54,675 bases of DNA from an uncultured Candidatus Saccharibacteria bacterium (GTDB lineage: Bacteria; Patescibacteriota; Minisyncoccia; Phycocordibacterales; PALSA-1337): NCBI GenBank assembly GCA_964389975.1, contig CAYMGJ010000003.1, positions 1 to 54,675 on the forward strand, written 5' to 3'. Positions 7,970 to 52,809 of the stretch are shown piece by piece. The position numbers were made by a program, and so were the translations under genes. Under the pieces are notes generated by a model. The model ran no database searches and was not told the origin of the DNA. It saw only the letters and a program-made list of their open reading frames with translations. Position 1 is the first letter of the stretch. Each line of letters begins with the position of its first letter.

Positions 7970-8154
7970 AACAAGAATAGTCGTTTGGCAATATCTGGAG
8001 GGTGTCATTTCTGACACAAAATCAGGACGGTATATTCTGTAAATGGCTATGTTAAGCCATTTTGTAACCAATATTCATAAGGTACCTAAACAGCGTACGC
8101 GAGCTAGCTTTAAAAGTCAACAGGTAACTCAATCTATGATATAGTTGTATAACT

Positions 8155-10098
8155 GTGAGTGAACATTCATTAAACATGCGACAAAAAGAGGCGGTAGAGA
8201 CCACTGAAGGGCCTCTTCTCATTCTTGCTGGAGCAGGTGCAGGAAAAACCAAGACAATAACTCATAGAATACTCCATATAATCAAAAAGGGTATTCGCCC
8301 AAGCTCAATTCTTGCCATTACCTTTACCAACAAAGCAGCCAAGGAAATGCGAGAGAGAGTGTTCCACCTCATAGCATCAGACAAGACTCTGAATATACCA
8401 ATATCGTACAATGAACGACCATTTGTAAGTACGTTCCATTCCCTTGGAGTTCATATTATAAAAGAAAATAGTTCTTTTCTTGGAATTCCTCGTCATTTCA
8501 GTATTTTTGATAGGGGGGATTCAAAACGTGCCATTAAAGATGCCTTGGAAGAGTTGAACTTGGATCCAAAGCAGTATGAACCAGGAACACTTCTCAGTGC
8601 AATCTCTCGAGAAAAGGGTGATGGGGTAAGCCTATCCGAATTTAAAAACCGCCATCATGATTTCTACAAAGGAATTGTTCTGAAGGTATGGGAAAAATAT
8701 GAACAAGCTCTTGCACGAGAAAAAGCTCTTGATTTTGATGACCTTCTCTTAAAAACAGCAGTACTTCTACGAACCCATGAGGAAATACGGAAGAAATATA
8801 GTTCATTATGGACATATATACATATAGATGAGTATCAGGATACAAACCGGGTTCAGTATGAAATAGCCCAACTCTTAGCTCAGGAACATAAAAATATTTG
8901 TGTTGTGGGTGATATTGATCAAAATATATATAGCTGGAGAGGTGCTGATATACAGAATATTCTTAATTTTGAAAAAGAATATCCACAAACAAAGATAATT
9001 CTCCTTGAAGAGAACTATCGTTCAACACAAACAATACTTACTGCAGCGAATAATGTCATAAAGAAAAACCTCATACGAAAAGAGAAAAACCTTTTTACCA
9101 AAAATGGAGAAGGGGAGAAGATAGAGCTCCTCATTTCATACACAGAACATGAAGAAGCCCGTACTGTTGCTGAAAAAGTCCGTGAAATCATAAAAGATGG
9201 CGTAAATCCTAAGGAAATAGCCATTCTTTACCGTGCAAATTTCCAATCAAGAGTTCTTGAAGAAGCATTTTTGAATAAAAACATTCCATACCAACTACTG
9301 GGAGTAAAATTCTTTGAACGTAAGGAGGTTAAAGATGTTCTTTCTTTCATACGGGCCTCCCTTAATCGAGATAGTGTGTCTGATCTTGTACGAATCATCA
9401 ATGTACCACCTCGAGGAATAGGGAAAACAACCCTCCTCAAGGTTGTATCAGGACAAGAAAGTACACTTGGACCATCTCTTCGTGTGAAAGTTCAACAGTT
9501 CATGTCTCTTCTCGATACAATACAATCAAAATCGAAAACGGAGAGACCATCAGAGCTCATAAAATACATCCTCAAAGAAACAGGAATGGAGCACGCATAC
9601 CGACAGGGAACATCAGAAGATCATGAAAAACTTGAAAACCTACAGGAACTTGTAACTGTCGCAAGTCAGTATGATGCTCTACCTGAAGAAGAAGGTCTTG
9701 AGAAGTTTCTTGAAAACGCAGCATTGGCAACCGATCAAGATGAACTAGAAGAAGAAGTGAATGCAGTAAAAATGATGACGGTACATGCCTCAAAAGGTCT
9801 TGAATTTGACTACGTATTCATCACGGGACTTGAAGAAGATCTCTTTCCTCATCAAAGAATGAATGAGAAAGACTCTGAGAACAAGGATACCGAGGAAGAA
9901 AGACGTCTTTTCTATGTAGCTATAACCCGAGCACGAAAGAAGGTATTTCTCAGTTATGCACAGATACGCACCATTTATGGAGCTCAGAAAGTTAATACAC
10001 CATCTAACTTCATTTCTGATATTGGTGATGAACAAATAACATCAGTGGGGGATTCTGAGGCTCCACGAGGTATAAAAGCTATTTTTATAGATTTTTAA
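8155..10098 (+). CDS. pcrA: ATP-dependent DNA helicase PcrA/UvrD family
   Basis: It has Walker A AGAGAGKTKT, FTNKAAKEMRER, DEYQDTN, VHASKGLEF and YVAITRARKKVFLS. The start is GTG at 8155; an alternative ATG lies at 8176. Confidence 0.9.
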   Translation: MSEHSLNMRQKEAVETTEGPLLILAGAGAGKTKTITHRILHIIKKGIRPSSILAITFTNKAAKEMRERVFHLIASDKTLNIPISYNERPFVSTFHSLGVHIIKENSSFLGIPRHFSIFDRGDSKRAIKDALEELNLDPKQYEPGTLLSAISREKGDGVSLSEFKNRHHDFYKGIVLKVWEKYEQALAREKALDFDDLLLKTAVLLRTHEEIRKKYSSLWTYIHIDEYQDTNRVQYEIAQLLAQEHKNICVVGDIDQNIYSWRGADIQNILNFEKEYPQTKIILLEENYRSTQTILTAANNVIKKNLIRKEKNLFTKNGEGEKIELLISYTEHEEARTVAEKVREIIKDGVNPKEIAILYRANFQSRVLEEAFLNKNIPYQLLGVKFFERKEVKDVLSFIRASLNRDSVSDLVRIINVPPRGIGKTTLLKVVSGQESTLGPSLRVKVQQFMSLLDTIQSKSKTERPSELIKYILKETGMEHAYRQGTSEDHEKLENLQELVTVASQYDALPEEEGLEKFLENAALATDQDELEEEVNAVKMMTVHASKGLEFDYVFITGLEEDLFPHQRMNEKDSENKDTEEERRLFYVAITRARKKVFLSYAQIRTIYGAQKVNTPSNFISDIGDEQITSVGDSEAPRGIKAIFIDF

Positions 10099-10102
10099 TC
10101 AT

Positions 10103-10927
10103 ATGAATCAAGACTACGAAGAAAAATCACTATCATTCTCTGCAAAAAAATCATTAGGACAGAATTTTCTCCATGCACCAAACATAATTAGTGCAATGGC
10201 TCATGCAGGAAATGCTGGTCCAGATAGTATTGTCCTTGAAATTGGCCCTGGAAAGGGAGCTCTGACCAAGACACTCCTTGCTTCAGGATCACGAGTTATA
10301 GCCATAGAAAAAGATGATCGGGCTATACCTTTTCTCAATGAACTCTTTAAAAATGAAATAGAATCTGGTCAGCTATCGCTCATTCATGATGATGTACTGC
10401 TCTGGGACCTTGAGAAATATGGATTAAAGAAAGATGAATATGTCGTTATAGCTAATATCCCCTACTATATCAGTGGGGAATTTATGAGAAAATTCCTCGA
10501 AACGGCTCAACATCCACAAAAAATTGTAGTAATGCTCCAGAAAGAACTTGCGAAAAGAATAGTTGATAGCAAAGAAAGTATTCTTTCTCTTTCAGTAAAG
10601 GCATATGGAAGCCCAAAATACCTTGTAACTGTGCCAAGGAAGCTTTTTAGACCCATTCCAAATGTAGACTCGGCCGTACTTGTCATAGATACAATATCAA
10701 AAAAATTCTTTGAAGAAAGTGGAATACCAGAGGCACGTTTTTTTGAAATCATAAAAGCAGGCTTTGCTCATAAAAGAAAGGTACTCATACGAAATCTTGA
10801 GGTGGTTATGGACCCCGCTATACTTAGAAAGATATGGGAAACAGAACAAATACCACTCACGGCACGAGCGGAAAATCTTTCTCTTGAAATGTGGAAAAAA
10901 ATCATAGGATATAATCATATATCTTGA
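10103..10927 (+). CDS. rsmA: 16S rRNA (adenine1518/1519-N6)-dimethyltransferase
   Basis: KKSLGQNFL and the SAM-binding VLEIGPGKGALT motif are present, along with NIPYYIS. Confidence 0.9.
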   Translation: MNQDYEEKSLSFSAKKSLGQNFLHAPNIISAMAHAGNAGPDSIVLEIGPGKGALTKTLLASGSRVIAIEKDDRAIPFLNELFKNEIESGQLSLIHDDVLLWDLEKYGLKKDEYVVIANIPYYISGEFMRKFLETAQHPQKIVVMLQKELAKRIVDSKESILSLSVKAYGSPKYLVTVPRKLFRPIPNVDSAVLVIDTISKKFFEESGIPEARFFEIIKAGFAHKRKVLIRNLEVVMDPAILRKIWETEQIPLTARAENLSLEMWKKIIGYNHIS

Positions 10928-10936
10928 TATAATTTA

Positions 10937-10960: not shown

Positions 10961-11917
10961 GTGAAGTATCCAAGCGCAAAAAACACACTTTTAATACTTG
11001 TAGCATGCCTGCTTGTAGGCGGTTCTTTTCTTGTTGCCGAATACAGAAACAAAAAAGCACAACCTATATATTCATCCTCTCTCAACACAAAACCAGCTGA
11101 TCACGAAACAGCTCAAATCGTAGATACAGACGGTGATGGACTTAAGGATTGGGAAGAGGTTCTCATAGGATCATCAACACGAAATCCAGACACTGATGGA
11201 GATGGTACAACTGATGGGGAAGAAGTGAGATTAAACAGAAACCCACTCGTAAAAGGACCTAAGGACAAATCTCAGAATACAACAATCATCTCTCAATCTG
11301 AGAAACTCGAACCTATCGATGCAGTGAGTCGAGAATTCTTTGCTCGATATATGCAATTGAAACAGGTAGGACTCTCTACTGATGCAGAAAGTCAACAAGA
11401 ACTCATCACATCAACAGTGAACAGTGTCGGTTTTGCAGAACCAAAATCATATACCACTGCCGATATTGTGATAGAAGAAGATAGTAGTGCTGAATCGATA
11501 AAAAAATATGGAAATGCCCTTGGTTCTGTTATACAAAAAAATATGATCTCTTCACGTAATGAAGGGGAGATAGCAAAGGAAGCCCTTGAGACCGGAAATT
11601 TAGAGATTCTCAAGGAATTGGATCCAATAATAGAAAATTATCGTAAAATTATAAATGGCTTCATATTAATACCAGCTCCTAAGGCGCTCGCATCTCTTCA
11701 CGCTGATTTATTAACAGGAATGAATGCAGCACTCTTTACGGCTCAATCCTTTAAACAGTCTGGGGTTAATCCAATCTCAGGACTTCAAGCAATCAGCCAG
11801 TACACCCTTGCCGAAGCAAAGATTAGGAGTGCACTCAATGCAATACGTAGCTATATGACGTTTCTTGGTATAAGTTTTATTGGAGAACCTGGGGAAATAA
11901 TTTTTACACAAAATTAA
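10961..11917 (+). CDS. Membrane-anchored or secreted protein with two thrombospondin-type-3-like Ca-binding repeats (cluster gene 1)
   Basis: GTG start. The N-terminal hydrophobic segment is LLILVACLLVGGSFLV. The repeats are DTDGDGLKDWEE and DTDGDGTTDGEE. The C-terminal half is helical. Confidence 0.6.
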   Translation: MKYPSAKNTLLILVACLLVGGSFLVAEYRNKKAQPIYSSSLNTKPADHETAQIVDTDGDGLKDWEEVLIGSSTRNPDTDGDGTTDGEEVRLNRNPLVKGPKDKSQNTTIISQSEKLEPIDAVSREFFARYMQLKQVGLSTDAESQQELITSTVNSVGFAEPKSYTTADIVIEEDSSAESIKKYGNALGSVIQKNMISSRNEGEIAKEALETGNLEILKELDPIIENYRKIINGFILIPAPKALASLHADLLTGMNAALFTAQSFKQSGVNPISGLQAISQYTLAEAKIRSALNAIRSYMTFLGISFIGEPGEIIFTQN

Positions 11918-11920
11918 ACT

Positions 11921-13504
11921 ATGAATTATTTCAAGAAAATAAACAAAGTAATTTCTGGTCTAATTATTTTAGCAATACTAATTACCCCTTTTGCATCTTT
12001 TCCTAAAAAAGCTCATGCTGTTATACCAACACAAGAAGTGGGTACTAGCCTATTCCAACAAATTATTAACACCATAAGTACCGTATCTAGTGAGGTGCTT
12101 CAGTATTCGAATGAATACAAGGAAAGTGTGCTTGATCCTTTGGCTTATACTGTTGCCAAAATGATTATCCGACAAGTCACATCTAGCATTGTTAATTGGA
12201 TAAATTCTGGTTTTCAAGGTAGTCCAGCATTCGTAACTGATCCAAATTCTTTCTTTCTTGATATTGCAGATCAAATAACAGGTGAATTTATTGCTAAGAG
12301 TGGAACATTAACTGAACTCTGTTCAAATTTTAATCTTGACCTTCGTCTTGCACTGGCATTTAAATACAGGCCTAACGTACAAAAAAGATATACATGTACC
12401 TTGAGTACAATAATTAACAACGGTATCAATGCCGTTGAAAATGCATCTATTAATGGATTTACCGCGGGAGACTTTAGACAAGGGGGATTACCTGCATTCG
12501 TCTCTCTTACCACAGAACCTCAGAACAATGTATATGGGGCATATATAGAAGCTGAGTACGATCTTTCATGGAGAGTACTTTCTGCACAAGGACAACAACA
12601 AAAAGAACTTGATCAAGGAAAAGGATTCTTGTCATGGAAAAAATGTACCCTATGGTCTGATAGTTCTAATGCGGTTTCAAATAGTTTAGATCCATGGGGA
12701 ATGAACACATCTCCCGGATCAACTGACAAAAAGACGTGCTTGAAATACGAGACCCAGACACCTGGATCAACAATCGCAGGTGCTCTTGAAACACAACTCG
12801 GATCTCCTGTACGACAACTCGAGCTTGCTGATGAGTTTGGAGAAATTGTAAATGCGCTTTTTGCCCATCTTGTAACAAGAGTCTTGCAGGGAGGTCTCAC
12901 AAATGTTAACAAGAAAGACAATAGTGGTCTTTCATACCTTGATAAAATTGATAAGGACATGAATACAAATAATGCTGCTATTTTAAATATCAAGAAACAA
13001 ATACTTTCAAAAATTGACGATCAGATAAAGAAAACTGAACAATTGAAGATCCGTCGAGAGGGGGTATTGAATAAAATTTCAGGAGTTAAAAATATATTTG
13101 ATGATGCACGAGTCTGTTATGTAGCAAAAATAGCAAGCTCAACCCCACCTATTTCAAGTAGTGAAAAGGAAGCTATTGAAGAGAGTATAAAAGAACTTGA
13201 TTCACAGGTTAGTGAAAACATTGCACCTTCAGCGGTAAGAATGATGGACCTAACACAGGTTGCATCATCAAGTCTTAAAGAACTAAAGGACATACAATCC
13301 GGAGCAAGTGCAGCAACAACAGTTGATGATATTATTAGCCTTAACGATCGATATACATTCCTACTTAATAGTGGACTTATTCCGAACTCAAACGATATTG
13401 GTGGTGTTGCTAAAGACGAAAATGAGGTAAACGACCTTGTAACAAATATGAAGCCGATAGGGATAAAAGCTTTGAATGACTGTCGAGGAATAAGAAGAAG
13501 ATAG
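11921..13504 (+). CDS. Secreted hypothetical protein, 527 aa (cluster gene 2)
   Basis: It has a signal peptide with a probable cleavage site at KKAHA/VIP, several Cys residues and a coiled-coil-like C-terminus. I recognise no family. Confidence 0.55.
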   Translation: MNYFKKINKVISGLIILAILITPFASFPKKAHAVIPTQEVGTSLFQQIINTISTVSSEVLQYSNEYKESVLDPLAYTVAKMIIRQVTSSIVNWINSGFQGSPAFVTDPNSFFLDIADQITGEFIAKSGTLTELCSNFNLDLRLALAFKYRPNVQKRYTCTLSTIINNGINAVENASINGFTAGDFRQGGLPAFVSLTTEPQNNVYGAYIEAEYDLSWRVLSAQGQQQKELDQGKGFLSWKKCTLWSDSSNAVSNSLDPWGMNTSPGSTDKKTCLKYETQTPGSTIAGALETQLGSPVRQLELADEFGEIVNALFAHLVTRVLQGGLTNVNKKDNSGLSYLDKIDKDMNTNNAAILNIKKQILSKIDDQIKKTEQLKIRREGVLNKISGVKNIFDDARVCYVAKIASSTPPISSSEKEAIEESIKELDSQVSENIAPSAVRMMDLTQVASSSLKELKDIQSGASAATTVDDIISLNDRYTFLLNSGLIPNSNDIGGVAKDENEVNDLVTNMKPIGIKALNDCRGIRRR

Positions 13505-13520
13505 GATATAATAAACAGAG

Positions 13521-15383
13521 ATGAAAAAGAAACTATCCAACATTCTCATAAGTATCGCACTCATCTTTACTGTAGGGGGTTTTGCACTTACCCCGATCCC
13601 TGCAGATGCTGCGTGTTGGATTGCAAATTTTAGAATAGTAGACTGTGTAGCAGATCTTGGAAGTGTACTGCAAGGTATCGTTGGGGTTGTACTCAGCACA
13701 TCAGCCACCCTTCTTAGTTTTTCTCTCAATATAACAATCAACATAAAGGAGATATACGAAAAAACTCCTGCAATCGAAAGTACTTGGCTTCTCATAAGAA
13801 ATCTTTCAAGCATGTTCATCATATTCATGCTTATGTATGCTTCAATTAAAACAATTCTGGGGGTTGATGAAGGGGGGCTTAAGAAGCTTGTAGGGAATGT
13901 TGTGGTGGCCGGTCTCCTCATTAACTTCAGTCTCTTTGGTACAAAAGCATTAATTGACGCTTCAAACCTTATCTCTCTCCAATTCTATAGAGCAATTGCA
14001 CCTGAATATGTAGGTAATGGAGGAATTGGGACAATTGACTCGGCGTATAGTAAGGGGGGAATTGCAAATGTTCTTCTTCAAAGTTTGAAAATACAAAAAA
14101 TATATAACCCAGCAACAGCAGGACTTTCAAATGCCAAAAATCAGGGGTCAATTTTCTTTGCAATAGTAATAGCAACATATGGAGGTATCATTCTTATGAT
14201 ATTTGCAACAATTAGCTTCCTTGCAGCAGCTGTTGCTTTTGCTATTAGAACAGCCTTACTACTACTTCTTATGGCATTTTCTCCAGTATATTTCGTTGGA
14301 ATGATTTTTCCTGAGATCAAAGCTGATATATCTGACAAATGGAAAAAGGCTCTCGTAAATCAACTCATATTCATGCCGGTATATCTTCTTCTTCTCTATG
14401 TTGCTCTTCGTTTCGTGAGTGATAGTAGTTTTATGAGTTTCATACAAGATCCTAAGGGAGTTACCTCAGGTGGGGTAATTGGGATGCAACATCTTGGTGT
14501 TATCATGCAGTATTTTATCGCAATTGTATTTATCAACCTACCCCTCATAGGAGCAGTAAAGTTCGGAGCTATAGGAGTTGGTTTTGCAGAAAACATGACA
14601 AAAGGATTTAAAGAAAGACTCTATGCTCAGCCCGGTTGGCTTGGTCAACACACCCTTGGTAGGGGAGCTAAGAAACTTTCTGAAACACTTGCTTCATCTG
14701 AATTTGCCCGTAACAATCCAAATTTTGCAGTATTAGCAAACAGTACACTTGGTAAAGTATCAGGTGCGACATTTGGTGGATCAAAGGGTGGATATGACAA
14801 GAGATTTAAGGAGTATTCAAAGGCACGAAGTGATTATGCTACTAAAAATCTTTCATTGAGTAGTAGTGAAAAGAATGATATCAAGAAGGCCGCTGAAAGT
14901 GAGGCAATGATCCAAATCAACAAGAAGCTTGAGGAGCGAAGAAATATAGAAAGGGAGATAGCTGAAAAGGAAGTAAAATACGACGAGGTTGTTAGAGAAC
15001 TTGGTCCAAATACATCAAAAGCACTGAAACTCAAAGAAGAAATCGATGAACTCCGAAAGAAAGTTGCTGATCCTTATGATGAACAGAGTGAGAAAAAGAA
15101 GTTAACTCGTGAAATCAAAGACAAGAAAGAGGCTGAGGCAAAGAAAGAAGTTCAGGGAACATTCATAGACAATCTTGAAAACAAAGAGGGAAGTATTGTG
15201 TCAAAGTTTTTTGGAAGTGCAACATCTAAGGCTCGATCAGATGCCGCTGATGCAATACGAAAGAAGATGAAGGAGGGTAAGGAAGCCAAGATAATAAAAG
15301 ATATTGCTAAAGCAGTGAAAGATAATTCAGATGGGGATGAAAAGAAAGAGGAGGGAGGTGGAGGTGATAAAAAAGATAAATAA
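13521..15383 (+). CDS. Polytopic membrane protein, VirB6/TrbL-like by topology, with a long Lys/Glu-rich tail (cluster gene 3)
   Basis: It has a signal/anchor segment followed by at least 6 hydrophobic helices up to about aa 360. The C-terminal region of about 200 aa is highly charged and ends KKEEGGGGDKKDK. Confidence 0.55.
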   Translation: MKKKLSNILISIALIFTVGGFALTPIPADAACWIANFRIVDCVADLGSVLQGIVGVVLSTSATLLSFSLNITINIKEIYEKTPAIESTWLLIRNLSSMFIIFMLMYASIKTILGVDEGGLKKLVGNVVVAGLLINFSLFGTKALIDASNLISLQFYRAIAPEYVGNGGIGTIDSAYSKGGIANVLLQSLKIQKIYNPATAGLSNAKNQGSIFFAIVIATYGGIILMIFATISFLAAAVAFAIRTALLLLLMAFSPVYFVGMIFPEIKADISDKWKKALVNQLIFMPVYLLLLYVALRFVSDSSFMSFIQDPKGVTSGGVIGMQHLGVIMQYFIAIVFINLPLIGAVKFGAIGVGFAENMTKGFKERLYAQPGWLGQHTLGRGAKKLSETLASSEFARNNPNFAVLANSTLGKVSGATFGGSKGGYDKRFKEYSKARSDYATKNLSLSSSEKNDIKKAAESEAMIQINKKLEERRNIEREIAEKEVKYDEVVRELGPNTSKALKLKEEIDELRKKVADPYDEQSEKKKLTREIKDKKEAEAKKEVQGTFIDNLENKEGSIVSKFFGSATSKARSDAADAIRKKMKEGKEAKIIKDIAKAVKDNSDGDEKKEEGGGGDKKDK

Positions 15384-15388
15384 AAACC

Positions 15389-16054
15389 ATGGATATAGAA
15401 CAAATCATTAAAGAACGATATCAAGAACTTCCCGCTGATATTCAGCGAGCTATACAGAGCAATGATCTTGCGGGTAAGTTTGATATGATTGCACAAAAGC
15501 ATAATCTCCATGTTGATCAAAATGGTTCACTACAAACAGAAACAGTTCTTGTTATGCTTGGACTAGAATCCTCAAAAAAATATGTTTCAAACCTTGAAAG
15601 AGAACTTGAAATATCTCATGAAAAAGCCTTAGCTATAAGTGAGGACGTGAACCGAGAAATCCTTATGAGCATTAGGGATTCTCTAAGAAAAATGGAAGAG
15701 GGGCAAGAGAAAGAGGATGACACACATCAACCTGAAAGCATCGACAAGGAACAAACCCTCTCAACCATAGAACAGGTAGGACAATTTACCCTCGAACGTA
15801 ATCCTCAATCAACATCACCTCAGTACAAGGAACAGGGGATAAGTAAGGACAACCTTCTTGCTCATATAGAAGATAAGGAACACCACAATCCAATAACCCT
15901 CACTGACCATCTCCTAAGCACTCCTGTTATAAATGCAGAAAAGAAAGTGGAAGTGAAGGTAGAAATTGTACCGAAAGAGGAGCCCCAGAAGAAAATTCCT
16001 GTGCCCGAAGTAAAAAAATACACAAGTGATCCCTACAGAGAACCGCTAGCATAA
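15389..16054 (+). CDS. Soluble hypothetical protein (cluster gene 4)
   Basis: Intact 221-aa ORF starting 5 nt after the previous stop. It has no transmembrane segment and no motif I recognise. Confidence 0.5.
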   Translation: MDIEQIIKERYQELPADIQRAIQSNDLAGKFDMIAQKHNLHVDQNGSLQTETVLVMLGLESSKKYVSNLERELEISHEKALAISEDVNREILMSIRDSLRKMEEGQEKEDDTHQPESIDKEQTLSTIEQVGQFTLERNPQSTSPQYKEQGISKDNLLAHIEDKEHHNPITLTDHLLSTPVINAEKKVEVKVEIVPKEEPQKKIPVPEVKKYTSDPYREPLA

Positions 16055-16076
16055 GTGTGTGTGATATACTATATAT

Positions 16077-16502
16077 ATGCGCTATCAAGTTCCTCAATTT
16101 ATCGAATTTGAAGACAAGATCTTTGGACCACTGACATTAAAGCAGTTCGTATATATTGCTGGTGGAGCAGGACTAGCTTTCATCATATACAGAGTACTGC
16201 CCTCAATATTCCTTTCTGCCATTCCTATGCTGTTGGTACTCACATTCTCAGCAGCACTTGCTTTTTACAAAGTTAATAACAAACCATTCATTACGGTTGT
16301 TGAAGCTGCATTTAAATATCTCATTGGTACAAAACTATATATCTGGAAGAAAGTAGACAAGAAACCGGGTAATAATCCTGCTCAAGAAGCAAAGGAATAT
16401 GCAGGAATTATGGTACCAAAGATATCTGACAGCAAGCTTAAGGACCTTACATGGAGTCTCGATATAAAGGAAAGTTTGTATAGTAATAAAAATCAGAAAT
16501 AG
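16077..16502 (+). CDS. PrgI-family / VirB3-like small membrane protein (cluster gene 5)
   Basis: The N-terminus MRYQVPQFIEFEDKIFGPLTLKQFVYIAGG followed by two hydrophobic helices matches the PrgI/VirB3-type pattern that usually precedes VirB4. A TGaTATACT -10 element at 16062-16070 sits 6 nt before the ATG. Confidence 0.7.
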   Translation: MRYQVPQFIEFEDKIFGPLTLKQFVYIAGGAGLAFIIYRVLPSIFLSAIPMLLVLTFSAALAFYKVNNKPFITVVEAAFKYLIGTKLYIWKKVDKKPGNNPAQEAKEYAGIMVPKISDSKLKDLTWSLDIKESLYSNKNQK

Positions 16503-16505
16503 AAT

Positions 16506-17138
16506 ATGGCAACACCATCAAAAACAACGCAAGACTTTGTACCAATACAAGAAATACGAGATGGTATTGTGGTACTTAAAGATGGTTCAATGAGAGCACT
16601 TATGCTTGCATCATCATTAAACTTTGCATTGAAATCTGCAGATGAACAGAATGCAATCATTCTTCAGTTCCAAAACTTCCTTAACTCTCTTGATTTTTCT
16701 GTACAGATCTTCGTGCAGTCAAAACGCCTTGATATACGACCATATATAGCCCTTCTGGAAGGGAGGTACAAGGAACAAGTTACCGAGCTCATGAAAATAC
16801 AGACAAGAGAATATATTGAATTCATAAAAACCTTTGTTGAAAACAGTAACATCATGACGAAGTCATTCTTCATCGTCATTCCATACTCTCCACCAATTAC
16901 AGTTTCTGGCAAAAATCCTTTTGGTTCACTTGTGAAGAAAAATGGTTCATCTCCACTCCTTGAAAATGGGAAATTTGAAGAATTTAGAAGTCAGATAGAA
17001 CAAAGAGTTAGTGTTGTAGAACAAGGACTTGTTCGCTGTGGAATACGTCTAGCAGAACTTGGTACTGAAGAGGTGGTAGAATTGTATTACAAAATATTCA
17101 ACCCTGGGGAAACGGAGAAACCAATTCAAATTAATTAA
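16506..17138 (+). CDS. Stand-alone protein resembling a VirB4/TrsE N-terminal domain, with no ATPase motifs (cluster gene 6)
   Basis: FVPIQEIRDGIVVLKDGSMRALMLASSLNFALKSADEQ followed by LDFSVQIFVQSKRLD parallels the N-terminal region of the next ORF. There is no Walker A or B motif. Confidence 0.5.
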   Translation: MATPSKTTQDFVPIQEIRDGIVVLKDGSMRALMLASSLNFALKSADEQNAIILQFQNFLNSLDFSVQIFVQSKRLDIRPYIALLEGRYKEQVTELMKIQTREYIEFIKTFVENSNIMTKSFFIVIPYSPPITVSGKNPFGSLVKKNGSSPLLENGKFEEFRSQIEQRVSVVEQGLVRCGIRLAELGTEEVVELYYKIFNPGETEKPIQIN

Positions 17139-17140
17139 TC

Positions 17141-18970
17141 ATGAGTATATTTTCAAAAATTTTAGGAAAAAAAGAAGAAAAGGAACCTGTGGTTTCTCTC
17201 ATGCCTCAAGAAATCTATGAGGCTGGTGTTCTTGAACTTAAAGACGTCATTGCTCCTTCTGCACTTAAAATTAGTCCTAAGGAGATAAATTTGGGGGAGA
17301 AGGTTGCACGAACATTCTTTGTCATTTCATACCCCAGATTCCTCTCAGAGAGTTGGTTTGCTCCGATCATAAACCTCGACAAGATATTTAATATTTCAAT
17401 ATTTGTTCATCCAGTAGATACAGCAAAGATTCTTCGACATTTCCAAAAGAAAGTTGCTGAGGTTCAAAGTCAGATATCACAAAGAGAGAGAAAGGGACTT
17501 GTTCGAGATCCTATGCTTGATACAGCATATCAAGATCTTGAAGCTCTTCGAGATAATCTCATGCAGGCACAAGAGAAGATATTTGATGTAGGAGTATATA
17601 TAACAATTTTTGGTGATTCAAGTGCTGAACTTGATAAGATAGAGTCTGAAGTTAAGTCAATACTCGAATCAAAGCTCGTATATCTCAAACCAGCACTCTT
17701 CCAGCAGGAGAGTGGTTACAAGAGTGTACTCCCAATTGCTTCAGATGAGCTTAATGTGCATTCAAAACTTAATTCATCTCCTCTTTCAAGTCTTTTTCCC
17801 TTTGTTTCATTTGACCTCACCTCAGACAAGGGAATACTCTATGGTATCAATCGACACAACTCATCACTCGTACTCTTTGACAGGTTCCTTCTTGAAAACT
17901 ATAACTCAGTAACATTTGCAAAAGCTGGATCAGGAAAATCATATTGCACAAAGCTTGAGATATTAAGAACCCTCATGTTTGATACTGAAGTTATTGTTAT
18001 CGACCCCGAAAAAGAATATGAGTATATGGCTGAAGCAACGGGAGGGAAGTACTTTAATATATCCCTCAATTCAGAACACCATATAAATCCATTCGATCTT
18101 CCAGTTCCACGCGAAGATGAGAGTGCGGCTGATGTACTCCGTTCAAATATCATTAATCTTGTGGGTCTTTTTAGAATCATGCTTGGAGGACTTACTCAAG
18201 AAGAAGATGCCATTATCGATCGAGCAATTACCGAAACATATGCACTTAAAGACATAACACCTGAATCAGATTTCAGAAACATTGAACCACCACTTCTTTC
18301 AGACTTTGAACTCGTACTTGCTGGTATGGAAGGTGCTCCGTCTCTCGTAGATATGCTTACCAAGTATACAAAGGGAACATGGTCAGGTTTCATCAATCGT
18401 CCATCGAATGTTGATATCAACAAAAAATTCGTAGTATTCTCACTTCGAGACATGGAAGATGAATTGAAACCTGTTGCAATGTACATTGTTACCCACTATA
18501 TATGGAATGCAATACGTAAAAATCTACGAAAGCGTCTTCTTGTTATCGATGAGGCATGGTGGATGATGAAATCTGAAGATACAGCATCATTTCTCCTCGG
18601 TCTTGCAAAGCGAGGACGAAAGTACTATCTCGGACTTGCAACTATAACTCAGGACGTTGATGACTTTCTTAAGTCACCTTATGGACTTCCCATCATCACT
18701 AACTCATCAATACAAATACTTCTCAAACAATCTCCTTCATCGATTGATAATATACAAAAAACATTCAATCTAACTGATGAAGAAAAATACCTACTCCTTG
18801 AATCAGATGTAGGGGAGGGGATATTCTTCGTTGGACTCAAGCATGTTGCATTGAAAGTTGTTGCCTCATACACAGAAGACCAAATCATCACCACAAACCC
18901 AGCTCAAGTTCTCGCTATTAAGCAAGCAAAACAAAGCTTAGAGCTGGAACAAAATGGAACAACAAGCTAA
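17141..18970 (+). CDS. VirB4/TrsE-like type IV secretion ATPase (cluster gene 7)
   Basis: Walker A is FAKAGSGKSY and Walker B is RLLVIDEAWWMM, with LGLATITQDVDDF downstream. The N-terminal domain carries RTFFVISYPRFL. Length is 609 aa. Confidence 0.85.
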   Translation: MSIFSKILGKKEEKEPVVSLMPQEIYEAGVLELKDVIAPSALKISPKEINLGEKVARTFFVISYPRFLSESWFAPIINLDKIFNISIFVHPVDTAKILRHFQKKVAEVQSQISQRERKGLVRDPMLDTAYQDLEALRDNLMQAQEKIFDVGVYITIFGDSSAELDKIESEVKSILESKLVYLKPALFQQESGYKSVLPIASDELNVHSKLNSSPLSSLFPFVSFDLTSDKGILYGINRHNSSLVLFDRFLLENYNSVTFAKAGSGKSYCTKLEILRTLMFDTEVIVIDPEKEYEYMAEATGGKYFNISLNSEHHINPFDLPVPREDESAADVLRSNIINLVGLFRIMLGGLTQEEDAIIDRAITETYALKDITPESDFRNIEPPLLSDFELVLAGMEGAPSLVDMLTKYTKGTWSGFINRPSNVDINKKFVVFSLRDMEDELKPVAMYIVTHYIWNAIRKNLRKRLLVIDEAWWMMKSEDTASFLLGLAKRGRKYYLGLATITQDVDDFLKSPYGLPIITNSSIQILLKQSPSSIDNIQKTFNLTDEEKYLLLESDVGEGIFFVGLKHVALKVVASYTEDQIITTNPAQVLAIKQAKQSLELEQNGTTS

Positions 18971-19382
18971 TCAGAAAAAACATAAAATAGGGAATATAGG
19001 GGCTGCGGTATTGATAATATCAGCCATAATTGCTGATCTTATAACTCTCATACCACTTGCGGGGGATATCGTGGGGCCACTCTTCTTTATACTTTCCTCT
19101 CTCTATTTCTGGAAAATAGGTTTGGGATTTGCTACAGGACGACGTTTTACAACGAATCTCACTGCCATGATTGCTGAACTCATACCAGGGGTACAAGAAC
19201 TTCCCATGATTGCCATTGGTGCAATTGCAATAGTTATAATGACACGGGCCGAAGAGAAAACAGGTATATCAATGATGAATCTCGGAAAAAAACCAGGAGT
19301 TACACCTCCACGTATACAAAAATCACCACTCAATCAAGGGGGAAAAAGATTGCCTCCTAAGATACAATCTGTGGTAAAATAA
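18954..19382 (+). CDS. Small polytopic membrane protein (cluster gene 8)
   Basis: It overlaps the VirB4-like stop by 17 nt. It has 3-4 hydrophobic helices and a basic Pro-rich tail. Confidence 0.5.
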   Translation: MEQQANQKKHKIGNIGAAVLIISAIIADLITLIPLAGDIVGPLFFILSSLYFWKIGLGFATGRRFTTNLTAMIAELIPGVQELPMIAIGAIAIVIMTRAEEKTGISMMNLGKKPGVTPPRIQKSPLNQGGKRLPPKIQSVVK

Positions 19383-19388
19383 ACATCA

Positions 19389-20429
19389 ATGAAATTGATG
19401 TTTAAATTATCAATATTTACTCTTGTTTTCTTCCTCATATCACTTGTACAAACAAGTATAGTTCACGCTCAACTAGTACCCATTTCCATCGATGGTATTG
19501 ATTTTGTAATTAACCCAGAAAATCCACGACCACGAGACACTGTTACCATACGAGCAGAGAGCTATAGCAGTGATTTACCCTCATCATCATTCGTATGGAG
19601 TGTGAATGGAAAGGTATATAAACAAGGAATTGGTGAGTATAGCATTGATGTGATTGTTCCAGAAATTGGAAATGTTGTTACCATAAAAGCACGAATTCAA
19701 GACACTAAAGGAAAGATAGTGGAAAAGAATATCGAAATACGACCATCTCTTGTTGATATTGTATGGGAATCCCAAAGCTACAAACCTCCATTCTACAAAG
19801 GAAAGAACAATATATCGTATGATGATCAAGTACGACTCATTGCAGTACCCCAGCTTTCTCATGGAGGAGTATCCCTCATTGATCCAAAAACACTTGTATA
19901 TCATTGGAAAATGGGAGGAAAAGATATCGATGGGGGAGTTGGGTATGGAACACAGAGTGTTATTATCCCCATGGGAAATATTCCCAAAGATATAGAAATA
20001 CAAGTTGAAGTAGCTACTCGAGATGGACTCGTAGAGGGTTCTGCATCAACAATATTGAAACCAGCATCTCCATCTGTTGTTTTCTATGAAGAAAGTAGTT
20101 TGTATGGACCTCTTTTTAACAAAGCTCTTGTAAACAAAGTTCCACTAAAAAATTCTGAAATGAAGGTCATTGCAACACCCTTCGGTTTTACCATTAACAA
20201 AAACAGAAATGATGTAAGTTATATCTGGTCAATAAATAGTGTGGATCAGGAAGATCTTGCTGGAAACAAAAGTGTGACCATACGAGCAAAAGGGGATACT
20301 GAGGGGTCTTCATTAATCAATCTTCGTATGAGAAATGTGGAACAAATACTCCAAGGTGCTGAGAACTTTGTAACCATATACTACAGCAAGAGAAATCTAG
20401 AATCTGAACCAACAGAACCAATATTCTAA
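19389..20429 (+). CDS. Secreted beta-rich protein with three internal repeats (cluster gene 9)
   Basis: The signal peptide ends VHA/QL. Three modules each contain an aromatic-W pattern (FVWSVNG, VYHWKMGG, SYIWSINS). Confidence 0.5.
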   Translation: MKLMFKLSIFTLVFFLISLVQTSIVHAQLVPISIDGIDFVINPENPRPRDTVTIRAESYSSDLPSSSFVWSVNGKVYKQGIGEYSIDVIVPEIGNVVTIKARIQDTKGKIVEKNIEIRPSLVDIVWESQSYKPPFYKGKNNISYDDQVRLIAVPQLSHGGVSLIDPKTLVYHWKMGGKDIDGGVGYGTQSVIIPMGNIPKDIEIQVEVATRDGLVEGSASTILKPASPSVVFYEESSLYGPLFNKALVNKVPLKNSEMKVIATPFGFTINKNRNDVSYIWSINSVDQEDLAGNKSVTIRAKGDTEGSSLINLRMRNVEQILQGAENFVTIYYSKRNLESEPTEPIF

Positions 20430-20433
20430 ATAT

Positions 20434-21522
20434 ATGAAAAAAATACTTATATACATAATCATACTCTGCGCACTTCTCCCCTTAAAAACTGAGGCACAGA
20501 AGTATACGCTACTTGAGCCATTACCTTGTATTCCAGAAGCAGGGACAAACTGTGCTCCAGGTGAAACAATCAAAGAAATCAATATAGTTGGATTTGTTGG
20601 GTATGTCTTCAAATTCTCAATCGCTCTTGCCGCTTTTCTCGCAGTTCTCATGATTATGTGGGGAGGCTTTGAGTACGTAATGAGTGAAACACCTTTTGGA
20701 AAAAGTGATGGAAAAGAGAGGATTACAAATGCCATAGTAGGTCTTCTTGGAATTCTTTCTTCATATCTTATACTTGCAACAATAGATCCAAGACTTGTTG
20801 AAATATATACCGATATACCACCAATACAAATAGATACGAGGGATGCAGTTTCGTTTCAAAGACAACTTGAGAGCAATATATCAACTCTAGGTGAAGAGAG
20901 TAGGCTGGAATCATTAAAAATTGAGGGGGATATTAAAAAAAATACTGAGAAAATAAAAGGGTTTGAGGCTCAAAACGAAGCAATCGGACTTTCTGAGGAA
21001 GAAGAGAAGGAATACCAAAGATTGAAAGAAGAAACTCGAATTCTTAAATCGAACCAAATCAAGGTAATAGCTAATGGCGCAATGGATATACAGCTAAAAA
21101 TTGCCCTTGAAAATGCTTCTAGTGATAAATTTATAGGTGACAAAGATACAAAGGCAAGAGTCGATGATGCTTTAAGAGTTATAAATCAACAATACGATAC
21201 TTATAGCCTAAAATTTAGAGAAATAAATGACCCAGCTGCTGAAACAGAGCTCATGCTTAGAAAAAGTTTCTATGTCGACCAAATATACCAAGAGAAGGGC
21301 TTGAATGAACTTCTGTGGAAATATGAAGGAAATGATTTGAAATATATATCAGAAGTCAAAACTCTAAAAGATACGTATTCAAAAAAATTAGAGGAACTCG
21401 AAGATCCATTAAAAAGTGAGGACGAGGCTTCGGGAAAAAAACAAGACCCGGCTCTAAGAAATTTGCACATATCGATTTTGAAAAGCAGATTGGAGAAAAT
21501 AAATAAAGCATTAACAGAATAG
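20434..21522 (+). CDS. VirB2/TrbC-like pilin-fold N-terminal domain fused to a long coiled-coil extension (cluster gene 10)
   Basis: The order is: signal peptide, a Cys-containing loop (LPCIPEAGTNC), two hydrophobic helices (FSIALAAFLAVLMIMWGGFEYV and AIVGLLGILSSYLILATI), and about 230 aa of charged heptad-like sequence. Confidence 0.55.
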   Translation: MKKILIYIIILCALLPLKTEAQKYTLLEPLPCIPEAGTNCAPGETIKEINIVGFVGYVFKFSIALAAFLAVLMIMWGGFEYVMSETPFGKSDGKERITNAIVGLLGILSSYLILATIDPRLVEIYTDIPPIQIDTRDAVSFQRQLESNISTLGEESRLESLKIEGDIKKNTEKIKGFEAQNEAIGLSEEEEKEYQRLKEETRILKSNQIKVIANGAMDIQLKIALENASSDKFIGDKDTKARVDDALRVINQQYDTYSLKFREINDPAAETELMLRKSFYVDQIYQEKGLNELLWKYEGNDLKYISEVKTLKDTYSKKLEELEDPLKSEDEASGKKQDPALRNLHISILKSRLEKINKALTE

Positions 21523-21527
21523 TAGAT

Positions 21528-22796
21528 ATGAAAAAAACCATATACATCATAATAACCCTTCTCATAATAGCCCTCATCGGAGGGGGAGTATATTGGTTTT
21601 TCTTTATGCAAACAGGCATACCAGATACTACAAATGACGAGGGAACTTCAAAATCAAATATATTTAATCCTTTTAAAAGAAACACCGTCACGCCGTCACC
21701 AGTACAAACAACACAGCAATCAACATCTACAGTCGATGATATTGTTGATGAATTTGTCCCTACAAAAATACCTGCATTGAGAAAACTAAGCTCTGCTCCA
21801 GTAGGAGGTATGGCAGCAAGTACCACTGCATCTTCAACAATCGTGCGTTTCATAGATCGTGGGGTGGGGCACATATCCGAGGCCCGGGATACGAGCAATA
21901 CCATAGACAAGATATCAAACACCACCATACCAAAGGTATATGATAGTTTTTGGAACAAGAACCTCACAGCACTTGTACTACGATATCTTAAGGAAGACTC
22001 TGAAACAGTGGTTAACTTCTATGCCGAACTACGTCAGACAGGAACAAGTACAGCAACAAGTACATCGATAACTCCGTATGAACTCAAGGGAAAGTACCTT
22101 TCTGCTGATATACAAGAAATTGCAGTATCACCTCTAAAAGACAAAATATTCACATGGAATATAGAGAACGGAAAGGGGGTTGGATACATAAGTAGTTTTG
22201 ACGAGAAAACAAAGATAAAAATATTTGAAACTCCAATTACCGAAGCTCTTGTAGAGTGGCCTGAGATTTCTAAAATCTTCGTAACAACAAAAGCATCTGC
22301 ATATGCAACAGGACATGTATATACAGTCGATACAAAGACAGGAACATTTAAGAAGGTATTTGGTGGTCCTCGTGGTCTTGCAACGAAAGCAAGTAAAGAT
22401 CTTTCTAAGCTCCTATATTCTCAAGGAACTCAAGACTCAATACTTCTTAGTCTTCTCAATCTAAAAGATAATAAATCACAGAACCTTCTCATTCGAACTC
22501 TTGCTGATAAGTGTGTGTGGAGTTCATATCATAAAGAAGACATATATTGTGCTGTACCAACAGAAATACCTCAAGGAATCTATCCTGATGATTGGTATCG
22601 TGGCACCGTTTCATTTGTTGATGAAATTTGGCACATTGACTCAACAACAGGGGAGGTACATCTTCTTGCCAAACTTCTTAGTGCTGGCGATGCCCTTATC
22701 GACGCAACAAACCTTACACTTGATGACAAGGACAATTACCTTTACTTCATAAATAAAAGAGACCTTAGTTTATGGTCTCTTGATCTCAACAATTAG
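21528..22796 (+). CDS. N-terminally anchored hypothetical protein, possibly beta-propeller-like (cluster gene 11)
   Basis: It has one N-terminal transmembrane helix (IIITLLIIALIGGGVYWFFF), a Thr/Ser-rich linker and a beta-rich C-terminus. Its stop overlaps the convergent yidC stop by 4 nt. Confidence 0.5.
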   Translation: MKKTIYIIITLLIIALIGGGVYWFFFMQTGIPDTTNDEGTSKSNIFNPFKRNTVTPSPVQTTQQSTSTVDDIVDEFVPTKIPALRKLSSAPVGGMAASTTASSTIVRFIDRGVGHISEARDTSNTIDKISNTTIPKVYDSFWNKNLTALVLRYLKEDSETVVNFYAELRQTGTSTATSTSITPYELKGKYLSADIQEIAVSPLKDKIFTWNIENGKGVGYISSFDEKTKIKIFETPITEALVEWPEISKIFVTTKASAYATGHVYTVDTKTGTFKKVFGGPRGLATKASKDLSKLLYSQGTQDSILLSLLNLKDNKSQNLLIRTLADKCVWSSYHKEDIYCAVPTEIPQGIYPDDWYRGTVSFVDEIWHIDSTTGEVHLLAKLLSAGDALIDATNLTLDDKDNYLYFINKRDLSLWSLDLNN

Positions 22797-23515
22797 AGAG
22801 GTTGGTGATTTTTAAGATGTTTCCTTACAATAAGCTCTTGTCCGAGGGTAAACAAACTACTTACTGTCCAATAGATAGCAACTACAGCAGATATCTTGTA
22901 TGAGATAAAGAAAATCATAACAGGAAATATATATTTCATAGTCTTTGCCATGTTCTGAGCCATATCAAGCTGGGGATTTCCTGAAGGTTTTCCATTTGAT
23001 GTTGCTGATACAGAATAGTGAAGTTGAAGATACTGAGAAAGTGCCGCAATGAGAGATATGGGGATACTTCGTACAGAAACGTCAACAAAACCGAGAAAAT
23101 GCATATCAATAACCGGTGATGTTACAAAACTATAGAGAAGTTCTGACTTTATCTCAGGCAATCCAGATTTTACAAAAATAGAGTAGAGGGCCCAGATAAT
23201 AGGGAGCTGGATAAAGAGAACGAGAAAGCTTGAAAAGGGGTTTACCCCTTTTTCTTTGTAAAGGGCCATCACCTTAAGAGCTTGTTGCTGTTTGTCAGGA
23301 ACTTCGTTTTTTAAACGATTAAGCTCTGGTTCAATCTCTTTCATACGAACCTGGGTTACAATAGCCTTCTTTGAAAGGGGAAAGAGGACAAGGCGTATAA
23401 TTATTGTGAAGATGATAACTGCAATACCTGCATCCATCCATGGAAAGACATCGAGAAGGTAGATAAGACCATTATAAAGGGGATTGAAAATGAAAGTTGA
23501 GTATAAATGTAACAT
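22793..23515 (-). CDS. yidC: Membrane protein insertase YidC (short Gram-positive-type form)
   Basis: AVIIFTIIIRLVLFPLSKK, MALYKEKGVNPFSS and the position downstream of rnpA support the call. Confidence 0.9.
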   Translation of the reverse strand: MLHLYSTFIFNPLYNGLIYLLDVFPWMDAGIAVIIFTIIIRLVLFPLSKKAIVTQVRMKEIEPELNRLKNEVPDKQQQALKVMALYKEKGVNPFSSFLVLFIQLPIIWALYSIFVKSGLPEIKSELLYSFVTSPVIDMHFLGFVDVSVRSIPISLIAALSQYLQLHYSVSATSNGKPSGNPQLDMAQNMAKTMKYIFPVMIFFISYKISAVVAIYWTVSSLFTLGQELIVRKHLKNHQPL

Positions 23516-23527
23516 AATGGATTAATT

Positions 23528-23863
23528 CTACTTTAAAAGATCTGCTTTCACAAAGTTTTTATGTATTTCACCATAAAAATCTGTGAGGGATAGTTTCTCA
23601 GCACCTTGTTTTATAATCACAATAACAAGAAACCCCTCTTTCAAACTAGGGGAGAGAGATCTTATGAGACTATAGGTTCTTCGACGTAGCTTGTTACGTA
23701 ATACTGCGGTATGAGCAACTTTTTTGGGAACAGACACCGCATATCTACTACTCGAATCATGTTCGAGTAATTTAATTGAAGAAAAAGAACAATGGGTAGA
23801 TTGTCCTTTTTCTATAATCTCTGCAAATAATTCTGTTGTAAGCCTCTTTGAGTGAGGGAGCAT
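23528..23863 (-). CDS. rnpA: Ribonuclease P protein component
   Basis: It is 111 aa and basic, contains AVLRNKLRRR, and has the conserved rpmH-rnpA-yidC synteny. Confidence 0.85.
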   Translation of the reverse strand: MLPHSKRLTTELFAEIIEKGQSTHCSFSSIKLLEHDSSSRYAVSVPKKVAHTAVLRNKLRRRTYSLIRSLSPSLKEGFLVIVIIKQGAEKLSLTDFYGEIHKNFVKADLLK

Positions 23864-23864
23864 A

Positions 23865-23999
23865 CTATACAGCTATTTTCTTTCGGCCTTTTTGTCGGCG
23901 TCGCTTCAAAACATTACGTCCTGTACTTGATTTTGATCGTACAAGAAATCCATGTGTCTTAGCTCGCTTTCTTTTCTTTGGTTGATATGTAAATGACAT
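23865..23999 (-). CDS. rpmH: 50S ribosomal protein L34
   Basis: [44 protein letters not shown] (44 aa). The track ORF extends spuriously to 24059, across the DnaA boxes. Confidence 0.9.
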
Positions 24000-46928: not shown

Positions 46929-46931
46929 ATA

Positions 46932-48188: not shown

Positions 48189-48191
48189 ATA

Positions 48192-52658: not shown

Positions 52659-52748
52659 TGGCGGATGGGGTGAGATTCGAACTCACGACCCAGTTTCCCG
52701 GGTGACGGTTTTCAAGACCGTTGCTTTAGACCACTCAGCCACCCATCC
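52659..52748 (-). tRNA. tRNA-Ser (anticodon UGA) with a long variable arm and genomically encoded CCA
   Basis: It is 90 nt. The anticodon arm is ACGGT CTTGAAA ACCGT, the variable arm is ACCCGG GAAA CTGGGT, and the T arm is GTGAG TTCGAAT CTCAC. The 3' end reads GCCA. Confidence 0.9.
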
Positions 52749-52809
52749 AGGGTGTACAAAGATACTCTCATATTTTGCTACAATTTTCAACTTCAGGTAC
52801 ACTGAAGAC

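Follow-up and report, generated by a model that had tools for sequence, protein, structure and literature searches.

A conserved type IV secretion-like gene cluster, probably non-conjugative, beside the dnaA-dnaN region of a Patescibacteria chromosome

The window analysed here, a stretch of 54,675 nucleotides of contig CAYMGJ010000003.1 from an uncultured Candidatus Saccharibacteria bacterium, carries at positions 10961-22796 a cluster of eleven genes, some of which are homologous to parts of conjugation machines. What kind of machine does such a cluster encode, and is it still a conjugative one? We conclude, with a probability of about 0.85, that it is a chromosomal, non-conjugative machine of the Patescibacteria (candidate phyla radiation, CPR) that resembles a type IV secretion system (T4SS). 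All eleven open reading frames (ORFs) were confirmed with the boundaries given in a preliminary description of this DNA, and they are numbered g1 to g11 in their order along the strand:

10961-11917, plus strand: g1, N-terminally anchored protein of 318 amino acids with TSP3 calcium-binding repeats (Pfam) and a conserved C-terminal domain
11921-13504, plus strand: g2, secreted protein of 527 amino acids with a Cys-containing N-domain (residues ~60-330) and a C-terminal helical bundle
13521-15383, plus strand: g3, polytopic membrane protein, very probably VirB6/TrbL-like (transmembrane scan, orthologues, AlphaFold/Foldseek)
15389-16054, plus strand: g4, acidic cytoplasmic protein of 221 amino acids without transmembrane segments, with an invariant C-terminal DPYRE
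16077-16502, plus strand: g5, PrgI/VirB3-like protein with two transmembrane segments (Pfam PrgI)
16506-17138, plus strand: g6, TrsD-like protein, a VirB4 N-domain encoded as a separate gene (NCBIfam, BLASTP)
17141-18970, plus strand: g7, VirB4 motor ATPase with the middle and C-terminal ATPase domains (NCBIfam/Pfam)
18954-19382, plus strand: g8, small polytopic membrane protein of 142 amino acids with about three transmembrane segments (transmembrane scan)
19389-20429, plus strand: g9, secreted protein with a signal-like segment (residues 7-25) and three homologous repeats of ~100 residues
20434-21522, plus strand: g10, VirB2-like T4SS pilin domain (PF18895, residues ~20-125) with a 240-residue C-terminal coiled-coil extension
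21528-22796, plus strand: g11, N-terminally anchored protein of 422 amino acids with a transmembrane segment at residues 7-25 and a conserved C-terminal motif

The genes follow one another with gaps of 3, 16, 5, 22, 3, 2, -17, 6, 4 and 5 nucleotides, in that order.

Profile searches placed the motor in the VirB4 family, as had been proposed for 17141-18970. The g7 product matched the NCBIfam model NF045971 (VirB4-like conjugal transfer ATPase, CD1110 family) with 371 bits against a cut-off of 325, over model positions 178-732 of 752, and Pfam returned matches to P-loop_TraG (94.5 bits), AAA_10 and DUF87. Both nucleotide-binding motifs are intact, Walker A as GSGKS at residues 263-267 and Walker B as DEAW at residues 470-473. 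For comparison we used 80 related loci (L001-L080), retrieved by a scan of species-representative genomes, whose VirB4 is 79-95% identical to that of the window; among these orthologues Walker A is intact in 80/80 and Walker B in 79/80. The loci come from Taylor-, Zambryski-, Campbell-, Wolfebacteria and other Patescibacteria. All VirB4 matches of 79-100% identity derive from Patescibacteria metagenome-assembled genomes (MAGs), and those of 91-100% identity lie in Patescibacteria, Paceibacterota and Taylorbacteria MAGs, where they are labelled VirB4, TraC or DUF87.

The N-terminal part of this ATPase is encoded by g6, whose product matches the first ~120-170 positions of several VirB4 models as well as the TrsD/TraD model NF041427 (all NCBIfam) and aligns by BLASTP to residues 20-197 of a 797-residue clostridial VirB4 (E 5e-9). 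Since g6, which ends 2 nucleotides before virB4, supplies the N-terminal ~180 positions that g7 is missing, VirB4 is split here over two genes in different frames. The split recurs in 79 related loci and is therefore no sequencing artefact. The assignment of 16077-16502 as PrgI/VirB3-like was likewise borne out, with a Pfam PrgI match of 41.8 bits (cut-off 27); identity of this protein across 79 loci ranges from 50 to 87%.

For g3, three weak lines of evidence agree on the VirB6/TrbL-like identity suggested in the preliminary description. The transmembrane scan gave ~6-7 segments followed by a hydrophilic, K/E-rich tail of ~270 residues. No curated model passed its threshold for the window protein and a profile search of the PDB returned nothing significant, while TrbL (PF04610) was found in 6/46 g3 orthologues and is the leading family there. 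We predicted structures for two of the cluster proteins, g2 and g3. The AlphaFold model of g3 residues 1-400 (predicted local distance difference test score, pLDDT, 73; predicted template modelling score 0.67) had as its top Foldseek matches in the PDB the TrwI/VirB6 chains of R388 (8rt9_F, 8rtd_L, 8rtd_H), with an E-value of 7e-3, a probability of up to 0.99, ~300 aligned columns and low template modelling scores. Finally, the pairing of g3 with PrgH, the VirB6-like protein of pCF10 (NC_006827), was the best of 84 local hhalign pairs (E 0.0034), and when the Prg/Pcf proteins of pCF10 were compared with all orphan profiles of the cluster only this pair stood out. Hhalign of g3 against a single clostridial CD1112 VirB6 was not significant, and PF19590, a precomputed annotation on g3 homologues, was not reproduced with Pfam. 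As the three lines agree and no competing family appeared, g3 is very probably VirB6-like.

The VirB2-like pilin fold noted earlier at 20434-21522 finds its support in the relatives of the protein. The window g10 matches the Pfam T4SS_pilin family (PF18895) with 22.3 bits, under the cut-off of 26.6, and 44/46 orthologues match it, with a best E-value of 4.7e-10. A local hidden Markov model gave a single match, so that g10 is the sole pilin gene in the window. The orthologues keep the PF18895 domain, and their C-terminal module is swapped between lineages (L042, L046, L055, L059, L063, L067, L074, L076 and others). It is a coiled coil of ~240 residues in the lineage of the window; elsewhere it is a globular module of 150-200 residues with an H..G..D...HWH pattern (LAS/M15-like), and further variants show weak matches to CHAP, NlpC/P60 or 3D, or have no module. 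A profile search of the PDB with the hydrolase-like C-terminal domains found nothing, and neither did BLAST comparison of these domains with the M23 peptidase and the amidase of the window and with a clostridial SLT protein.

This set of genes was not new when we found it. The cluster had been put forward as a candidate for an uncharacterised system, a claim that fails because the component set and its origin-proximal position are described in PMC12102498 and reviewed in PMC12857230, with genetics in Saccharibacteria in PMC10633639; the system therefore does not count as a new kind. In the description by Quinonero-Coronel et al. (2025; PMC12102498), the VirB4 proteins of Patescibacteria form a monophyletic clade nested in MPF-FATA, with TrsD, PrgI/VirB3, VirB6 and VirB2-like pilins near virB4, relaxases almost absent and type IV coupling proteins (T4CPs) rarely linked, and with dnaA, dnaN, rnpA, ksgA and rpmH nearby in Paceibacteria and Microgenomatia. 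In the 2025 review (PMC12857230) they have the rank of an accepted T4SS subgroup. For the Saccharibacteria version, Wang et al. (2023; PMC10633639) used transposon sequencing in Southlakia epibionticum and showed that epibiotic growth requires the T4SS genes SEML1_0006-0019; they pointed out the pilins and that neither a coupling protein nor a relaxase is present, and their supplement lists VirB6 (0013), an NTF2-like protein (0012), PrgI (0010), the gene in the TrsD slot (0009), VirB4 (0008) and M15/M23/lysozyme-like hydrolases (0007, 0006). The Patescibacteria T4SS is thus already known, and in a huge, mostly uncultured radiation it is among the few machines with a demonstrated essential role in episymbiosis; the present cluster is a clean, complete Paceibacteria example of it.

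With the Patescibacteria system as known from S. epibionticum the cluster shares VirB4 with an adjacent TrsD-like gene, PrgI/VirB3, VirB6 and a PF18895 pilin, the order VirB6-x-PrgI-TrsD-VirB4, the lack of a nearby relaxase or T4CP, and the site beside dnaA/dnaN/rnpA/rpmH/ksgA. The two differ in that a single pilin with a long coiled-coil tail stands here in place of an array of six short pilins, in that NTF2 (VirB8-like) and lysozyme/M15/M23 hydrolase genes are not inside the cluster here, and in the Paceibacteria-specific accessory set g1, g2, g4, g8, g9 and g11.

The best VirB4 matches from beyond the CPR share 27-35% identity and belong to the CD1110 family of Firmicutes/Actinobacteria conjugative plasmids. 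The gene neighbourhood is VirD4-x-VirB6-PrgI-x-VirB4-x-SLT hydrolase in pCDC3875 and PrgH-PrgI-PrgJ-PrgK-PrgL...PcfC-relaxase in pCF10, and the MPF-FATA systems (pCF10 Prg/Pcf, CTn2/CD1110-type) thus share with the window a CD1110-family VirB4 together with PrgI and a VirB6-like gene in the same order. The core order VirB6-x-PrgI-(TrsD)-VirB4 is common to clostridial and enterococcal conjugative elements and S. epibionticum, and the separate TrsD-type N-domain has its counterpart in the pGO1 subclass (TrsD-TrsE of the pGO1/pSK41 Trs systems). The cluster differs from MPF-FATA in lacking VirD4, a relaxase, a PrgK/SLT-type hydrolase, a VirB8-like PrgL/PrgD and LPXTG adhesins, in having a VirB2-like pilin, a component absent from Gram-positive systems, and in being a non-mobile chromosomal block with synteny across species. 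The lineage very probably derives from monoderm (MPF-FATA) conjugation machinery that lost its DNA-processing parts and came to be inherited vertically beside the replication origin.

Whether the cluster is a resident of the chromosome or an element passing through it can be judged from its surroundings, in which the following genes lie:

2944-3882, minus strand: tyrosine recombinase with a Phage_int_SAM_1 N-domain, 7 kb upstream of the cluster
6884-8071, minus strand: M23 peptidase with two LysM domains, 2.9 kb upstream of the cluster
8155-10098, co-directional with the cluster: uvrD/pcrA, upstream
10103-10927, co-directional with the cluster: ksgA, 33 nucleotides upstream of g1
22793-23515, minus strand: yidC, convergent with the cluster end, with a 4-nucleotide overlap
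23528-23863, minus strand: rnpA
23865-23999, minus strand: rpmH
24123-25469: dnaA, downstream of rpmH
25707-26813: dnaN, downstream of dnaA
33549-35219, minus strand: PilB/GspE-type T2SSE ATPase (384 bits), 10.7 kb downstream of the cluster

Gene order proved to be conserved across related Paceibacteria-type genomes. In tblastn searches with all window proteins, ksgA-[g1...g11]-yidC-rnpA-dnaA-dnaN was collinear in 79/80 loci, the sole non-collinear locus being a paralogous best match. Median identities in the related loci are 83% for VirB4, 68% for the TrsD-like protein and 60% for PrgI, with 61% for DnaA, 55% for DnaN and 58% for UvrD; the accessory proteins have medians of 29-41%. VirB4 identity exceeds that of both DnaA and DnaN in 47/47 loci carrying all three genes, a gap biased upward because the loci were selected by VirB4 similarity. 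Across loci, identity to the window VirB4 tracks the identity of DnaA (rho 0.70) and of UvrD (rho 0.72), as expected for vertical co-divergence. Collinearity and VirB4 conservation therefore argue for a vertically inherited core machine, not an integrative and conjugative element (ICE).

A degraded or cryptic ICE that has recently lost its relaxase, coupling protein and integrase, or carries them just beyond the cluster, would fit the homology of the VirB4, PrgI and VirB6 core to monoderm conjugation genes, and a tyrosine recombinase does lie upstream. However, this explanation is essentially refuted by the same position and gene order in 79/80 species, by a VirB4 divergence that tracks DnaA and UvrD, and by a constraint on VirB4 stronger than that on DnaA. 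In addition, the GC content is uniform over the cluster region (~0.37-0.39), and the search for direct repeats flanking the cluster gave only short chance matches. The recombinase, the only one in the window, is probably of the XerC/D type, and housekeeping genes lie between it and the cluster. No relaxase family and no VirD4/TcpA-type coupling ATPase was found by Pfam in any ORF of at least 100 amino acids across the 54.7 kb, a clostridial VirD4 used as tblastn query had no match in the window or the 80 related loci, and neither a relaxase nor a T4CP was found within 10 kb of virB4 in those loci. Beyond the cluster, the remaining window ORFs of this size are housekeeping genes only (Pfam scans).

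As it comes with neither a relaxase nor a coupling protein, the cluster presumably does not conjugate. The preliminary description's picture of a chromosomally fixed, non-conjugative surface apparatus derived from a T4SS thus holds, given 79/80 collinear loci, no flanking repeats and no relaxase or T4CP in the window. Its wording as relaxase-less and coupling-protein-less stands for the 54.7 kb and for the 10 kb around virB4 in 80 loci, but the latter term can be asserted for the window only; according to the literature, VirD4 homologues are located elsewhere in most Patescibacteria genomes. The accompanying statement that no wall hydrolase, integrase or VirB11 lies nearby is true of the cluster itself and needs correction for its surroundings, where we found the M23/LysM peptidase, the Xer-type recombinase and the T2SSE ATPase.

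The rpmH-rnpA-yidC/dnaA-dnaN group beside the cluster consists of genes that classically lie near the origin. A count of DnaA-box-like nonamers showed no significant enrichment (26 found, 18.6 expected), so that the position "next to oriC" claimed earlier follows from gene context and not from DnaA boxes.

How such a machine would work can be sketched from its parts. Its core in the cytoplasmic membrane consists of the VirB6-like g3, the PrgI/VirB3-like g5 and the split VirB4, with g6 as N-domain and g7 as motor. A VirB4 hexamer docked on VirB3/VirB6 may drive the extraction and assembly of pilin into a short filament or tube spanning the wall, and the secreted or anchored proteins, namely the calcium-binding g1, the helical g2, the Ig-like g9 and g11, could form the part that crosses the wall or a tip that touches the host cell. 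The organism is a probable episymbiont, and we infer that the role of the machine is most likely that of a host-contact conduit needed for this lifestyle. As to what passes through it, we tentatively prefer uptake of host-derived macromolecules, at somewhat less than even odds, ahead of protein export, which we regard as the less likely direction, or adhesion alone.

The authors of PMC12102498 put forward the hypothesis that such a machine imports host DNA or other host macromolecules. In its narrower form, a machine importing host or environmental DNA as a source of nucleotides, it would resemble Helicobacter ComB or archaeal Ced, which, like Bordetella Ptl, share with the cluster a VirB4-type ATPase and non-conjugative use without coupling protein or relaxase. 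The loss of T4CP and relaxase with retention of a pilin fits this form, as does a partial match of g7 to the CedB model. That match, however, reaches 32 bits over a partial stretch, far under the cut-off of 700, and no ComB- or Ced-specific protein was recognised in the cluster. Beyond VirB4 there is no specific homology to ComB, Ced or Ptl, and the envelope components differ. Pfam and NCBIfam recognised no DNA-binding or nuclease component in the cluster. Competence of S. epibionticum requires ComEC and type IV pili, and deletion of comEC is viable whereas the T4SS is essential (PMC12857230). We regard a dedicated DNA-uptake machine as unlikely.

Protein export was suggested as the alternative by Wang et al. 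(PMC10633639), and the export rival takes the form of effector delivery that manipulates or kills the host bacterium, with g4 or other products as cargo or adaptor. Effector systems without a T4CP are known (Ptl and Brucella VirB), and the invariant C-terminal peptide of g4 behind a disordered linker recalls C-terminal T4SS signals. In the cluster and the window, though, we saw no effector-like or toxin/immunity genes, there is no T4CP for substrate recruitment, and g4 is conserved like a structural part, unlike a variable effector. Effector delivery of this kind seems doubtful to us, though a little less so than DNA uptake.

VirB4 alone is enough for pilus biogenesis in some T4SSs. This counts for a structure that serves host attachment without transport, an adhesive pilus or surface fibre, and so do the pilin and the Ig-like, calcium-binding and possibly beta-propeller surface proteins of the cluster. 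Type IV pili, however, already provide Patescibacteria with adhesion, and a PilB-like ATPase is present in the window; the bulky, swappable C-terminal modules of g10 also speak against a simple filament. Adhesion as the only function is accordingly the least probable of these three proposals. A conduit for host-derived macromolecules remains our preference among the possible functions.

Several points weigh against our overall identification and against the conduit role. The choice of the 80 loci by VirB4 inflates the apparent conservation of that gene, and each of the lines behind the VirB6 assignment of g3 falls below threshold. Sequence comparison found neither a VirB8-like nor a VirB1-like component in the cluster, and a canonical VirB2 filament may not accommodate the 240-residue extension of g10. 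The genome could also encode a T4CP or relaxase outside the 54.7-kb window. Lastly, the genetic evidence comes from the Saccharibacteria counterpart, and for Paceibacteria systems the direction of transport and the cargo are conjecture.

A bolder combination of the individual leads, which we consider improbable, would make the Paceibacteria system a housekeeping-grade import conduit with an architecture of its own, going beyond a stripped-down conjugation core. The DPYRE peptide of g4 would dock on g6/g7 and stand in for the coupling protein that the system lacks; g10 would be no classical pilus but a membrane-anchored carrier of interchangeable extracellular modules, either coiled coils or wall hydrolases of the M15/CHAP/NlpC type; and g1, g2, g9 and g11 would make up a new wall-spanning assembly. 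The leads as such are incremental and modest: the order of the 11 genes is fixed, VirB4 is extremely conserved, g4 has its DPYRE tail, the pilin swaps its C-terminal module and the promoter is conserved.

The proteins that set the cluster apart from the S. epibionticum system are the accessory set of five envelope proteins (g1, g2, g8, g9, g11) and one cytoplasmic protein (g4), whose positions are kept in ~80 species. Seven orphan products had been counted in the preliminary description, which overstates their number: the gene at 16506 encodes the TrsD-like N-domain of the split VirB4, and the product of the gene at 10961 carries TSP3 calcium-binding repeats. For the six accessory proteins our searches, by sequence and for g2 also by structure, assigned no family. 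Orthologue alignments of g1, g2, g3, g4, g9, g10 and g11 gave nothing significant against PDB profiles, and no orphan matched PrgL, TraM, TcpC or PrgK by sequence when VirB8-like and hydrolase parts were sought.

The first of them, g1, begins with GTG, has one transmembrane segment at residues 8-26 and matches Pfam TSP3_bac with 39.5 bits; it is present in 44 loci with Y183, P240 and H247 invariant, and the profile search with its orthologues found no PDB relative. In g2 a signal-like transmembrane segment (residues 10-28) precedes a highly conserved N-domain, and the alignment has 46 invariant columns. AlphaFold modelled its C-terminal residues 340-527 with a pLDDT above 90 and the N-domain with low confidence; Foldseek against the PDB returned only generic helical matches, and the PDB profile search found nothing. 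Several g2 homologues (P0126, P0131, P0137 and P0186) reach the gathering score of Pfam DUF4141 (30 bits), a hint of doubtful meaning, as the match does not extend beyond the signal peptide and the start of the mature protein.

Behind a linker rich in Pro and Lys, the cytoplasmic g4 ends in DPYRE(P/E/S)xx (coding positions 16028-16051). In 55 loci the PrgI gene is directly preceded by an ORF with a DPYRE ending, and none of the other ORFs of the window or the loci has such a C-terminus. We found no PDB or Pfam relative of g4; judged by its sequence, the tail looks like a docking motif, and g4 is possibly an adaptor. The slot of g8 holds an ORF of 110-200 amino acids with 2-4 transmembrane segments in at least 49/68 loci, while tblastn detects this fast-evolving gene in only 18/80. 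In g9, which is present in 77 loci, the three repeats align to one another with hhalign probabilities of 90-95% and look Ig-like, with weak matches of orthologues to Ig families.

The last gene, g11, has an invariant cysteine pair (C329, C341) and the motif PDDWY at residues 353-357. No Pfam or NCBIfam model matched it, yet its family of anchored proteins of ~400-440 amino acids comprises 3273 representatives at 50% identity with E<=1e-3, and 1302 at E<=1e-30. A TolB-like match in the PDB profile search was marginal, its E-value moving from 1.3e-3 to 0.06 with a more diverse profile; g11 may be a beta-propeller. The accessory proteins, including this 3273-member family, are concrete targets for structural and interaction studies.

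Two sequence elements lie at the head of the cluster:

10925-10933, plus strand: extended -10 promoter-like motif TGATATAAT, overlapping the ksgA stop codon
10937-10958, plus strand: perfect 22-nucleotide palindrome GGGCAGTATTTAAATACTGCCC, between TGATATAAT and the GTG start of g1, ending 2 nucleotides before the GTG

The pattern TGnTAnAnT occurs within 80 nucleotides upstream of g1 in 29/42 loci, against a background of 2.9% per 80-nucleotide window. It is also enriched within 60 nucleotides upstream of g9 (30/70 loci; window copy at 19372) and, less so, before g5 (14/73 loci; window copy at 16062). Conservation of the TGATATAAT-type motif therefore suggests that the cluster probably has a promoter of its own, with perhaps internal ones as well, and TGATATAAT itself is, by its sequence, the probable main promoter. 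The tight packing that had suggested a single operon is real, but the promoter-like motifs conserved before genes 1, 5 and 9 make several transcription units probable. A generic scan for consensus terminators and sigma-70 promoters gave counts at chance level. GGGCAGTATTTAAATACTGCCC folds with -14.8 kcal/mol (RNAfold), and its arms, AGTATTT/AAATACT, are kept in five close relatives. It could serve as a hairpin in the leader or as an operator; because the arms are conserved without covariation, an RNA hairpin and a DNA operator are indistinguishable.

As for the neighbours named above, the M23/LysM peptidase is a possible stand-in for the VirB1-type wall hydrolase absent from the cluster, and it was detected near the cluster in only ~12/80 loci. 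Genes for PilB, PilC, a prepilin peptidase or type IV prepilins were not found inside the cluster, the only T2SSE ATPase being the one 10.7 kb away. This ATPase stands isolated between ruvB and a gene without assigned function, and probably belongs to a type IV pilus machinery. Farther along the minus strand, a MacB-type ABC transporter set at 46248-49721 comprises an ABC ATPase, an FtsX/MacB permease and an HlyD-like adaptor, in a genome presumed to be monoderm. Finally, a tRNA-Ser gene (52659-52748, minus strand) overlaps the 5' end of the RuvX ORF (52702-53196, plus strand), which was called mechanically from a GTG; the true start of RuvX is probably further downstream.

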